This document shows, in pieces, positions 1-28,369 of a stretch of DNA of 28,369 bases. The DNA comes from a virus (Duplodnaviria; Caudoviricetes): positions 1 to 28,369 of the IMG/VR virus record IMGVR_UViG_3300020045_011929. One strand, 5' to 3'. Each line of letters opens with the position of its first letter. Position 1 is the stretch's first letter. The position numbers and the translations under genes were made by a program. The notes under the pieces are model-generated. The model made no database searches and was not told the DNA's origin. It saw only the letters and a program-made list of their open reading frames with translations.

Positions 1-45
1 CTTTGCGGTAAGCAGTAACGCGACTTCGAATGTTTTTTTACTCAT
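1..45 (-). CDS. Probable true N-terminus of the tape measure protein, partial, runs off the window (MSKKTFEVALLLTAK...)
   Basis: The reverse complement of 1-45 reads ATG AGT AAA AAA ACA TTC GAA GTC GCG TTA CTG CTT ACC GCA AAG. This resembles the typical 'hydrophobic strand-A-x-D' tape measure start. It lies directly downstream of the chaperone extension, where the tape measure gene is normally found. Confidence 0.7.
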   Translation of the reverse strand, partial: MSKKTFEVALLLTAK

Positions 46-59
46 ATCTATTCATATAT

Positions 60-92
60 AAAAAAAACCGCAACCGTTATCGGTGCGGTTTT
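60..92 (-). terminator. Intrinsic terminator after the chaperone extension
   Basis: Minus strand reads AAAACCGCACCG-ATAA-CGGTTGCGG-TTTTTTTT: a GC stem with one bulge and an 8-U tract, starting at the TAA (91-93). Confidence 0.75.
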
Positions 93-248
93 ACGTTTCT
101 GCTGGTGGGTTCATTTTTTCGTGCAATTTCAATGCTTCAACAAACCAATAATGAACGTCATTCCCGTCCATTTCAAATAAAAAATTTAACGATGTGTTTG
201 AAAAATGTGCCAGAAAAATTAATTGTTCTGGCGTTATGTAAAAAGCTG
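91..248 (-). CDS. Tail assembly chaperone C-terminus and its -1 frameshift extension (P2 gpE/E'-like, lambda gpG/GT-like), inverted
   Basis: The zero frame ends CAG CTT TTT ACA TAA (QLFT*, 248-234). The -1 frame continues FYITPEQLIFLAHFSNTSLNFLFEMDGNDVHYWFVEALKLHEKMNPPAET, which resembles the GpE' pattern (lA.hF.w....l..M...e...W...A). Confidence 0.7.
209..245 (-). promoter_or_regulatory. Putative programmed -1 ribosomal frameshift signal (slippery run plus downstream hairpin)
   Basis: Minus strand CTTTTTA (245-239), a 6-nt spacer, then the stem GCCAGAA (232-226) / TTCTGGC (215-209). Confidence 0.6.
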
Positions 249-1577
249 AAAAATATGGGTCTTGACCCGTCAGAACAGGCTTTAACCGCATACGGAAATA
301 CAGCTTCGGCAATGGGTAAATCATTGAATGATATGGTTGAAGCGGTTGCCGATGCTGCAACAGGCGAGTTCGAACGTTTGAAGGAATTCGGTATAAAAGC
401 CAGTTCACAGGGCGACAAAGTTTCATTTTTATTTCAGGGTGTGAAAACCACGGTTGGAAAAAACGCAAAGGAAATTGAGCAGTATTTGAAATACGTCGGA
501 AACGTGAAGTTTGCGGGAGGAATCGAAGCGCAAAGCAAGTCAGTAAAAGGGATGCTTTCCACGTTAAAGGATGGTGTGGTTATGACGGCTTCCAAGGTTG
601 GAACCGTGTTTTTGCCACGATTAAAAGAACTTATGAATCAGGTCACGCCTGTAGTTGACAGAATTTCAAATTGGGTAAGCAAAAACCCTGGATTAACCGA
701 AGGTATTTTAAAAGCAGCAGCAGGCGCAATGTTATTAAGTTTTGCAGTTTCAGCAGCGGCTTTCGCATTTGGAGGCGTGTTTAAGGTTATTTCTGCAGGC
801 ATGGCAATTATGAACAGTTACCGAACTTTGATGATCACCGTGACAGCTGTTCAGAACGCTATGGCATTTTCGGCACTATCAGGAGCGACTGGAATTCAGA
901 CACTTTCGGCTGCTTTGAAAGCCGCTAATTTAGCGTTTTTGACTTCGCCTATATTTTGGGTAGTTGCCGCAATTGCCGTGGCTGCATTCTTAATTATAAA
1001 ATATTGGGAGCCTATTAAAAAATTCTTTTCCGGATTGTGGGATGGAATCAAGGCGATATTTTTCAAGGCCTTGGATTTCGTTAAAAAATGGGGTTTGTTA
1101 TTTGTTGGACCGATTGGCTGGATCATTATGATTTGGAAAGCCGTTCCTGACAAATTCAAAAACATTGGTTCTGATATTATGATGGGATTATGGAACGGGA
1201 TTAAATCCAAAGCAATGGCATTATTCGATTTTGTAAAAGGAATCGGCAAAGGTATCGCAACGGCTTTTAAAACTGTTCTTGGTATAGCCTCGCCTTCAAA
1301 GGTATTTATGGATTACGGCGTAAACATAACCGAGGGAGCACACAACGGCATCAAGAAAGGACAGGATAGGGTTATTGGAGCGTCAAAAGGAATGGGAAGT
1401 TCTATAAAACCAACCGCAAGCCGTGGTGGAAGTAGTAGTTCGACAGTATCCGTGACGTTTGCGCCTGTAATTCATGGAGGCTCTGGCGATGTGGCAACAC
1501 AGGTTAAAAATTTGATTCCTGAATTGATACGACAAATTGAGGCACAGATGCAAAGAAAAGCAAGATTAGCTTATTAA
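243..1577 (+). CDS. Tail tape measure protein, central and C-terminal part (5' part separated by the inversion junction)
   Basis: From KLKNMGLDPS...AMGKSLNDMVEAVADAATGEFERLKEFGIK onward it is a typical tape measure domain. It continues with Ala-rich hydrophobic segments, W-spaced repeats and the LGIASPSKVF motif. The first ~70 aa of the listed ORF 30..1577 do not resemble a tape measure protein. Confidence 0.9.
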   Translation, partial: KLKNMGLDPSEQALTAYGNTASAMGKSLNDMVEAVADAATGEFERLKEFGIKASSQGDKVSFLFQGVKTTVGKNAKEIEQYLKYVGNVKFAGGIEAQSKSVKGMLSTLKDGVVMTASKVGTVFLPRLKELMNQVTPVVDRISNWVSKNPGLTEGILKAAAGAMLLSFAVSAAAFAFGGVFKVISAGMAIMNSYRTLMITVTAVQNAMAFSALSGATGIQTLSAALKAANLAFLTSPIFWVVAAIAVAAFLIIKYWEPIKKFFSGLWDGIKAIFFKALDFVKKWGLLFVGPIGWIIMIWKAVPDKFKNIGSDIMMGLWNGIKSKAMALFDFVKGIGKGIATAFKTVLGIASPSKVFMDYGVNITEGAHNGIKKGQDRVIGASKGMGSSIKPTASRGGSSSSTVSVTFAPVIHGGSGDVATQVKNLIPELIRQIEAQMQRKARLAY

Positions 1578-15399: not shown

Positions 15400-15428
15400 T
15401 AACTAAATTTTCTAATAAAAAAACTTTT

Positions 15429-15454
15429 TTAATTAAATTTAATACTTATATTTG
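15429..15454 (+). promoter_or_regulatory. Rightward promoter with conserved 14-bp box (copy 1)
   Basis: TTAATTAAATTTAA-N4-TATATTTG. Confidence 0.7.
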
Positions 15455-15477
15455 CATCAACATTAAAAAATATAAAA

Positions 15478-17504: not shown

Positions 17505-17525
17505 AAATTATTTTAAATAAATAGC

Positions 17526-17554
17526 TTGTTAATCAAATTTAAGTATTATATTTG
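17526..17554 (+). promoter_or_regulatory. Promoter with conserved 14-bp box (copy 2)
   Basis: TTG-TTAATCAAATTTAA-N4-TATATTTG. Confidence 0.7.
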
Positions 17555-17584
17555 CGTATAAAATAACTGTAAAATATAGAAATT

Positions 17585-20000: not shown

Positions 20001-22793
20001 ATGAACATATCAGAAATAAAACAAAACTATCGAATTGAGGAAGTTATAGGGCAACATATTTCATTGAAAAAACAAGGCCCTGAAATGGTGGGTAATTGTA
20101 TTTTTCACTCAGATGACCACGCTTCTTTAAAAGTCAATCCAGTCAAAAAAAAATTCAAGTGCTTTGCTTGTGGCGCGGGGGGTGATATGATTGATTTTTT
20201 CGAGTTGCAAGGATATTCAAAACCCGAAGCAATGAAATTAATTCAAGACAGATCCATTGTTTCGATAGCTGAAACTGCCCCAAAAATTCAGGAACCAATT
20301 TGGATAAATGCCATTCCTGACCAAAATAATTTACCAGACGTTTCGAAATTGACTTTCAAGGATTACGGCAATCCATCGAATTTCTGGGCATACCACGATG
20401 AAAACGGAAATGTAATTTCTTATGTTTGCCGTTTTGATTTGACCAACGGTAAAAAAGACGTAATTCCTTATTCCTATAAATCAAACGGTAAAACTGCACG
20501 TTGGCAATGGCGAGGCTTGGATACACCTCGTTTGCTGTATAATTTACACGAAATCGTAAATAATCCGACTAAAATAATTTTACTTGTTGAAGGCGAAAAA
20601 ACAGCCGAAGCCGCTAAATTATTGTTTCCAAAATACGTTGTCACCACTTGGATAGGCGGGGCAGACGGTGTGAAAAATGCCGATTGGACACCGTTACACG
20701 GTAGAAAAATATTTTGCTGGGCAGATAATGATATTCCGGGACTTCACGCAATGTTTGGTGGCTGGAGCTACAACGAGAAAACCGAAAAATATAGACGTGT
20801 AAAAGGAATTTCCGAAATGTTTGAGGCTAGTTTTAAGCAAATAAAAAACAGTCCAGAATTTCCAAAAAAATGGGATGTTGCTGACGCTGTTTGGACACCT
20901 GATGAAGCCTTGGAATACTTACAGGCGAATAAATCCGATGTGCCAACGGTTTCAGAACACGCCCCAAATGAAATCCCAGAGGCAGTTATTAATTTGCCTT
21001 CAAGAATTAATGTGCAAATCGAGAATAAAATAATCGAACTGGAACAGCCTGAAATTATCCCACCTGTTTTTAGTCCTGAACCGCCCGAAGAAATCGAAAC
21101 GGAAAACGTTCCAAAAAATCCATATTTCAAATGCCTTGGTCACGAAAACAACGGAGGCACAATTTATGTATTTTTCAACTATCGCACCAATTCAGTAATT
21201 CGTTTTACTTCATCCAGTTTTTCAGGATCCACAATTTTACAACTCGCACCACTCAACTATTGGGAAGGAAATTATTCGAAGGATGGACGTTCAGGAGGTG
21301 TGAAATTCGATATTTCACGAATTACGGATACGCTTATTTCTATTTGTTCAAAACTTGGAATTTTTGATAACAATATGATTCGTGGGCGTGGAGCTTGGAT
21401 GGACAAGAAATCGCCAGTAATTCATTGTGGCAGCCACTTAATTGTAGATGGTGTTGCGAAACGATTTTCAGACCATAAATCACGATATATTTATGAAGCC
21501 GGGAAAGAACTAGGTTTCAATTTATGCAGTCCATTAAAAAAACACGAAGCTTATAAGTTGGTTCAGATGCTGAATCGTTTGAATTGGTCACGACCTTTGG
21601 AGGCTAAATTACTGGCTGGCTGGATAGTTATTGCGCCTCTTTGTGGTGCGTTGAATTGGCGACCTCATTTATGGCTTACTGGAGCTTCTGGTTCTGGAAA
21701 GTCCGAGATTATAAAAATGTTTGTTAAAAATTTTATGCGTGAAATGTTTGTCGATGCGCAATCAGAGACAACCGAAGCAGGTATAAGACAATTTTTGCGT
21801 GCCGATGCTTTGCCAGTAATTTTCGATGAAGCTGAATCCGAGGACAAAAAATCAGCCGAAAGAATGCAAGCGGTCTTGAACATTATGAGGGCTTCTAGTA
21901 CTTCTGATGGTGGAAAAATTATCAAAGGAACAGCCGGAGGTGCCGCAACTGAATTTAATATACGTTCGTGTTTTGCATTTTCCAGTATTGGAGCAGCCAT
22001 ACATCAGCGGTCGGACCAATCGAGAATAACTGTATTGGAAATCAAACCCGATTTATCCGAGGACAAAAAACAACGTTGGACAGAAACGCTTAAAATTTAC
22101 TTCGAAACCGTTACAGAGGAATATGTGCAGGCATTTCAGAGCCGTTCAGTGTGGTTATTACCTACAATATTAATGAATGCTAAGGTGTTTTCGAATGCGG
22201 CCGCAATAGTGTTAAACAACCAACGTACAGGCGATCAATTAGGGATACTTTTAGCGGCTTATTATAGTCTGACTTCAGAAAGTATAATTTCGCTGGATAA
22301 TGCAATGAAATGGATGATTGACCAAGATTTATCCGAGGAAAAACTCGCCAACGATACCCGTGATGAAATAAAACTGATAAATCATTTAATGAGTTGCGAT
22401 ACCGAAGTTGAAACCGTTTCGTATGGCAGGATCAAAAGAACTATTGGCGAATTAGTTATAATTGCACGTGGCGATGTTATTTCAGATGATGAATCACATC
22501 GTGTTAATTCTGATTTGGCCAACGAAACTTTGAAACGCCTCGGAATGAAAGTTTCTGGATTCTGTTTGGTAATTTCCGACAACTCGGAAAAAATAAAACG
22601 ATTCTTGGAAAACACATCATATTCAAGAAATTACCATACTATTTTACGCAGGGTTGAAACTGCTGAAAAAATAATCAATACAACATTTGGAGGTCATATT
22701 AAATCGAATGCCACTAAAATAGATACTCGAGCGATATTTGGAGAGTTTGAGAATCCAGGGATAAGTGACACTCAAAAAGAATTATTCGATTAA
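20001..22793 (+). CDS. Primase-helicase (CHC2 Zn finger + TOPRIM + P-loop NTPase)
   Basis: CIFHSD...FKCFACG, LVEGEKTA, WADND, KWDVAD, Walker A GASGSGKS and Walker B VIFDE. Confidence 0.9.
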   Translation: MNISEIKQNYRIEEVIGQHISLKKQGPEMVGNCIFHSDDHASLKVNPVKKKFKCFACGAGGDMIDFFELQGYSKPEAMKLIQDRSIVSIAETAPKIQEPIWINAIPDQNNLPDVSKLTFKDYGNPSNFWAYHDENGNVISYVCRFDLTNGKKDVIPYSYKSNGKTARWQWRGLDTPRLLYNLHEIVNNPTKIILLVEGEKTAEAAKLLFPKYVVTTWIGGADGVKNADWTPLHGRKIFCWADNDIPGLHAMFGGWSYNEKTEKYRRVKGISEMFEASFKQIKNSPEFPKKWDVADAVWTPDEALEYLQANKSDVPTVSEHAPNEIPEAVINLPSRINVQIENKIIELEQPEIIPPVFSPEPPEEIETENVPKNPYFKCLGHENNGGTIYVFFNYRTNSVIRFTSSSFSGSTILQLAPLNYWEGNYSKDGRSGGVKFDISRITDTLISICSKLGIFDNNMIRGRGAWMDKKSPVIHCGSHLIVDGVAKRFSDHKSRYIYEAGKELGFNLCSPLKKHEAYKLVQMLNRLNWSRPLEAKLLAGWIVIAPLCGALNWRPHLWLTGASGSGKSEIIKMFVKNFMREMFVDAQSETTEAGIRQFLRADALPVIFDEAESEDKKSAERMQAVLNIMRASSTSDGGKIIKGTAGGAATEFNIRSCFAFSSIGAAIHQRSDQSRITVLEIKPDLSEDKKQRWTETLKIYFETVTEEYVQAFQSRSVWLLPTILMNAKVFSNAAAIVLNNQRTGDQLGILLAAYYSLTSESIISLDNAMKWMIDQDLSEEKLANDTRDEIKLINHLMSCDTEVETVSYGRIKRTIGELVIIARGDVISDDESHRVNSDLANETLKRLGMKVSGFCLVISDNSEKIKRFLENTSYSRNYHTILRRVETAEKIINTTFGGHIKSNATKIDTRAIFGEFENPGISDTQKELFD

Positions 22794-22806
22794 TTTTAAA
22801 AATTAG

Positions 22807-22836
22807 TTGTTTAATTGATTTTAATGTTTATATTTG
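22807..22836 (+). promoter_or_regulatory. Promoter with conserved 14-bp box (copy 3)
   Basis: TTG-N19-TATATTTG, containing TTAATTGATTTTAA-N4 just before the -7 element. Confidence 0.7.
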
Positions 22837-22864
22837 CGTATTATTAATTTAAAAATTTATCAAA

Positions 22865-28339: not shown

Positions 28340-28369
28340 ATGGAAATCCAAAACAAATCAATACAGGCT
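28340..28369 (+). CDS. Possible start of a gene running off the window (MEIQNKSIQA...)
   Basis: ATG after an A-rich leader and a TACATTTA near-promoter element; only 10 codons are visible. Confidence 0.3.
   Translation, partial: MEIQNKSIQA

Follow-up and report, generated by a model that had tools for sequence, protein, structure and literature searches.

A strand flip beside the predicted tail-chaperone frameshift site at the end of a viral contig is most probably a fold-back chimera

Genes and features at the left end of the contig

The window analyzed here is the entire virus record G000, a linear contig of 28,369 bases with an estimated completeness of 62%. It carries genes of a P2-type contractile tail and baseplate (GpU, tail X, GpD, gp25, baseplate J and P2 gpI), which are followed by recombination and replication genes. 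Positions 20001-22793 encode a 930-aa primase with a CHC2 zinc finger and DUF6371, and its neighbours are helicase, RecT-like and exonuclease VIII genes and a D12-class adenine methylase. At the right end of the window, a neck/tail-completion-like gene of 217 aa (PHROG 27 in the related contig G002) begins, with its first 10 codons at positions 28340-28369; it stands apart from the structural operon, after the replication genes. Dispersed intergenic repeats containing TATATTTGC lie at positions 1567-1603, 15405-15466, 17505-17566 and 22787-22848, and we take them to resemble the Bacteroidota -7 promoter box TAnnTTTG. Together with DUF3127 in the window, these repeats hint at a Bacteroidota host. 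Among GenBank phages, no close isolate of the window's phage was found. Genome contigs yielded no relative of the tape measure protein, only three distant tube genes (53-60%), so that neither a host nor a prophage was identified.

The minus strand of positions 1-248 reads as the end of a tail chaperone gene, a frameshift extension, a terminator and the start of a tape measure gene, in agreement with the first-pass annotation. The last chaperone codons (QLFT*) are read on the minus strand from 248 to 234 and correspond to the INQLFV* and INQLFT* ends found in relatives. The T-run at this chaperone end is a likely slip site, as predicted from the conserved overlap of the two frames. The -1 frame that encodes the gpE'-like extension (positions 91-246, minus strand) is intact, with 51 codons and a stop; it reads AFYITPEQ...PPAET* from 246 to 94, with the stop codon at 93-91, and its product is 94% identical to the extension of the related contig L002. 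Between the extension and the tape measure gene, positions 56-92 of the minus strand hold a terminator-like hairpin (92-64) followed by a T-run (a U-run in RNA). The hairpin is conserved in relatives and folds with -15.7 kcal/mol (z -3.6); a simple terminator scan reported it on the plus strand only. The first 15 codons of the tape measure gene (MSKKTFEVALLLTAK) occupy positions 1-45 on the minus strand, where the gene is truncated at the contig end, and alignment finds the same N-terminus in the tape measure protein of L002 (559 aa).

On the plus strand, positions 243-1577 are an open frame of tape measure codons 115-559. The product matches residues 115-559 of the L002 tape measure protein with 91% identity and also matches PHROG 28 (E 6e-37), so that the earlier assignment of the plus strand from about 243 to the middle of the tape measure gene stands. 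At the nucleotide level, window positions 6-248 match L002 positions 5697-5457 (92%) on the opposite strand, and from 243 onward the window aligns with the same strand of L002, beginning at L002 position 6001. Of a segment of about 545 nt, the contig carries the first 248 nt in reverse, fused to codon 115 of the tape measure gene, and about 296 nt of the segment lie off the contig. Since the contig ends 248 nt into the segment, any second junction would lie beyond it. The first-pass annotation had taken the whole segment from the chaperone end to the middle of the tape measure gene as flipped; the strand flip is confirmed, whereas the contig holds one junction only, and the inversion of a segment is therefore not itself observed.

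The junction lies at positions 242-249. Its certain overlap is AAGCTG at 243-248 (6 nt). The 7-nt AAAGCTG (242-248) that had been reported as readable in both directions holds for these six bases, whereas A242 belongs to the overlap only on the assumption that ATA was the lost Ile codon, as found in 1 of 13 aligned relatives. A249 belongs to it if the lost Asn codon was AAT, which occurs in all four QLFT-type relatives. Judged from these codons, the total overlap is probably 6-8 nt.

Both pieces on either side of the junction are under purifying selection and show no decay. In comparisons with L002, L004 and L005, the extension gave pN/pS values of 0.07-0.14 and the tape measure piece values of 0.10-0.16. 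Since neither piece has decayed, any natural event would have been very recent. An old broken prophage was rejected on the same ratios.

The tail module and the junction sites in related contigs

A scan of viral contigs found 52 loci related to the tape measure protein, the best of them 91% identical. L002 has, in this order, a tube gene, a chaperone gene that ends in INQLFV*, an overlapping -1 frame and the 559-aa tape measure gene starting MSKKTFEVALLLTAK; in the relatives the order is sheath, tube (PF04985), chaperone, overlapping -1 frame and tape measure. The two junction sites were compared in 22 related contigs, a set that leaves out L026, L031 and L041 because their chaperone ends are too divergent. 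The -1 frame of the extension is open and conserved in all 22. The two sites are co-oriented and 541-565 nt apart in 19 of the 22, and 825-1180 nt apart in the remaining three, which carry insertions. Insertions of about 280-640 bp between the extension and the tape measure start were seen in L012, L019, L056 and L068, and other relatives have variable inserts between the tube and the chaperone. These tail-operon insertions look like moron slots.

Profile searches gave weaker results for the chaperone and its extension. The extension peptide of the window had no match to the PF06528 (gpE) profile, and one of 13 aligned members, the homolog in L041, matched it with an E value of 0.0052. In the Atlas, the extension hit at rank 4 (score 0.94) a cluster with PF06528 on 72% of its members. 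The chaperone match to PF10109 was weak (E 0.11). The putative link between the extension and P2 gpE' is weak by profile and firm by position and by the conserved -1 frame.

Alignment to related phage contigs set the window apart. In 25 distinct related contigs, the extension occurs together with the middle part of the tape measure gene, and the two are co-oriented in 25/25, the window alone being mixed; some of the 25 are near-identical strains, which makes their independence incomplete, and contigs lose rare variants, which bears on the count of 0/25 inverted. No other strand flips were found in the rest of the window when it was compared with six related contigs. We then scanned with a degenerate junction pattern in which the crossover was allowed to move. 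In a collection that may be without records very near the window's genome, this pattern recovered the window once and no other viral contig or metagenome contig, and the reciprocal junction to which the first-pass annotation had pointed was found in none of the viral contigs and in 0 of 128 sequences compared. Exact-strain patterns for both junction sides and for the contig start matched no viral contig, and the native sequence of the strain was not found there. A pattern for the extension start recovered 23 viral and 15 metagenome stretches, from which 3 and 14 chance matches, respectively, were dropped for want of the extension frame. Two different related contigs (L006:1 and L007:1) begin at an identical base within the part of the tape measure gene that encodes the N-terminus, a sign that assembly may have broken off where strains have common sequence.

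The shared bases at the junction had been interpreted as the crossover core of a short inverted repeat. The relatives do not support this interpretation: in 1 of 22 the hexamers pair as a perfect 6-bp inverted repeat, and the core is not conserved. Site 2 has nine different hexamers among the 22 relatives, which differ at wobble positions, as would be expected for codons that are free at those positions. Within 40 nt of the two sites, perfect inverted matches in the relatives reached 5-8 nt at most; the window has 2590 inverted pairs of at least 7 bp at 100-1000 nt spacing. In-register inverted pairing at the junction averaged 13.2 of 30 bases (44%) in the relatives versus 7.9 ± 1.9 of 30 in the neighbouring registers (1681, non-independent), which puts the junction register in the top 0.3%. 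Such pairing suits a mispriming 3' end that chooses the best local match. Another reading would be a degenerate recombination site, for which this pairing is the one result in favor. Since the identity is 44% and much of it is fixed by the encoded amino acids, the pairing is far from a recombination site.

The first-pass annotation saw no invertase in the window, and the profile searches bear this out, with no serine recombinase (PF00239) and no tyrosine recombinase (PF00589) detected in it. In 30 related contigs, all of them fragments, none 90% complete and several covering at least 6 kb on either side of the site, PF00239 and PF07508 serine recombinases were found in none and PF00589 was found in one, G020. 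The G020 gene (L118:199-1035) encodes a 278-aa tyrosine recombinase (PF00589, E 4.5e-40) and lies just upstream of a small gene before the portal. It is about 8 kb from the junction site, and the variable slot that holds it, upstream of the portal, lies outside the window; G020 itself is co-oriented. G003 has three small ORFs of unassigned function between the large terminase and the portal. The pairing of a linked enzyme with conserved inverted repeats, which marks a tyrosine-recombinase switch, was not seen in the contigs compared.

Inverted contig ends and the origin of the junction

The last 1.5 kb at both ends of the 30 related contigs were compared mutually, with mixed-strand rows from 60-100-bp internal repeats left out (G011, G022, G027 and one under G001). 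A short flipped tail was found on 3 of the 30 contigs (3/60 ends), each at another gene. Since 7 of the 60 ends were compared with themselves alone, three flipped tails is a lower bound. With the window included, short inverted tails were seen on 4 of the 31 contigs that were examined in this phage family.

The end of G001 (L093:11273-11590) is a 318-bp, 100% inverted duplicate of the contig's own interior with a 2549-nt loop, and the end of G002 (L092:7705-7810) is a 106-bp, 100% inverted duplicate of its own interior with an 880-nt loop. Since G001 and G002 keep the normal copy too, a fold-back makes such ends and a reciprocal inversion cannot. The end of G015 (L116:13658-13767) has 110 reversed bp, an overlap of about 7 nt and a span of about 534 nt, and it breaks the major capsid gene. 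It has the same geometry as the window junction, of which it is a twin. Of the G001 and G002 joins, one is situated 69 nt upstream of the gene for the small terminase, and the other 42 nt past a neck/tail-completion gene whose homolog begins at the right end of the window. A physical genome end may lie near these two joins, although this is a guess, and the G001 and G002 tails, where overlaps are not measurable, may have a different cause near such possible genome ends.

We conclude, with a probability of about 0.85, that the start of the contig is a fold-back (template-switch) chimera that arose in DNA amplification or library preparation and was kept by the assembler. The first-pass annotation had mentioned an inversion chimera near a sequence end, and this is now the best-supported explanation, with like ends at unrelated genes in the related contigs. 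In such an event, the minus strand would be copied leftward along the tape measure gene to the chaperone end, about 545 nt further. The 3' end would then anneal to the same-sense strand at codon 115 of the tape measure gene, through 6-8 complementary bases (AAGCTG/CAGCTT) aided by imperfect pairing in the flanks, and rightward extension would produce an arm-loop-arm molecule, of which the assembler would have retained 248 nt of the loop and the long arm. We infer both the in vitro origin and the step responsible. The phage itself would have the ordinary order of tube, chaperone, frameshift extension and tape measure.

It was considered whether the join had formed in nature. Microhomology-mediated rearrangements happen in cells too, and a chance microhomology could have led to a one-off illegitimate inversion or in vivo fold-back; the genome would then be that of a dead-end phage or of a prophage broken very recently. 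Such an event would agree with the single junction in the contig, the reciprocal of which would fall off its end. We regard it as unlikely. It would wreck two essential tail products (for the role of the frameshift product, see PMC5009743), and neither piece has decayed. The like tails in relatives are always at contig ends, and two of the three have a duplicated arm. On the other hand, the join may have been made by cutting and ligation, with a blunt cut at AGCT (presumably an AluI site) on both sites followed by ligation, as in proximity-ligation libraries. AGCT does lie within the overlap on both sides, and the joined sequence fits the ligation prediction; the overlap, however, exceeds AGCT by at least 2 nt, the contig start is not at AGCT, and AGCT is absent from the join in all three other terminal junctions (G001, G002 and G015), which makes a ligation product very unlikely.

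The first-pass annotation had also raised an ON/OFF tail switch, in which a phage or host recombinase acting at degenerate sites would reversibly invert the segment from the chaperone end to the tape measure gene. The junction coincides with the predicted frameshift site, the in-register pairing stands out among neighbouring registers, the G020 recombinase occupies a slot outside the window, and a host enzyme could act in trans. A programmed switch predicts both orientations, conserved sites and an enzyme, and it is not supported. None of the 25 related contigs is inverted, the perfect core and site 2 are not kept among the 22, serine recombinases were not found in the 30, and the G020 enzyme is distant in a contig that is co-oriented. 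Conserved repeats, a second contig with either junction and a linked invertase were all sought and not found, and the OFF state would be without a usable product. We therefore consider the programmed inversion extremely improbable, and equally so its variant in which a recombinase in trans turns tail assembly off by reversible inversion at degenerate sites, cutting both the chaperone frameshift product and the tape measure gene, as a minority state in the phage family. Were the switch real, phage phase variation would gain a new form (tail/no tail), but nothing beyond one junction was found in its support.

With the fold-back chimera as the preferred explanation, the phage most likely has an ordinary P2-type tail module, and the junction is most likely of no biological consequence. 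Since 4 of 31 contigs have short inverted tails, strand flips within a few hundred bases of viral contig ends should be presumed artefacts absent reciprocal-junction reads.

Comparison with known systems

The Gin and Cin invertases act on tail fibres. The window junction is like the Gin, Cin and Hin switches in that a sub-kilobase segment stands in opposite orientation, here in a phage tail region. Unlike them, the window's family has no conserved site pair of the 26-bp class, no linked serine invertase and no second orientation in relatives, and here a flip would disrupt genes instead of exchanging one version for another. For Hin, PMC3798978 describes two 26-bp sites and an enhancer.

The gene order of the relatives is like that of a P2-type contractile tail with a chaperone and -1 frameshift, as described for lambda G/GT and P2 E/E' in PMC5009743. 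According to the same source, lambda cannot assemble its tail without the frameshift product, and this gene arrangement shows wide conservation, P2 included. Further along, the window has genes for GpU, tail X, GpD and the baseplate, as in a P2-type tail. Unlike in P2 and lambda, the chaperone and extension were assigned here by position and by the conserved -1 overlap; the frameshift is predicted, and the family profiles are weak.

The junction also resembles chimeras formed in multiple displacement amplification (MDA). According to Lasken and Stockwell (2007, PMC1855051), 85% of MDA chimeras are inverted, with complementarity of 2-21 nt and segments mostly less than 10 kb apart. Tu et al. 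(2015, PMC4595205) give overlaps of mostly 5-8 nt, with a peak at 6 nt, and distances of 0-5000 nt with a peak at 250-300. Unlike those chimeras, the window junction is known from an assembled contig and not from reads, and other library steps could give it. Like them, it is an inverted join of nearby segments, less than 10 kb apart within one genome, with an overlap of 6-8 nt (against the peak of 6 nt and inside the 2-21 nt range) and a distance of about 545 nt (against 0-5000 nt).
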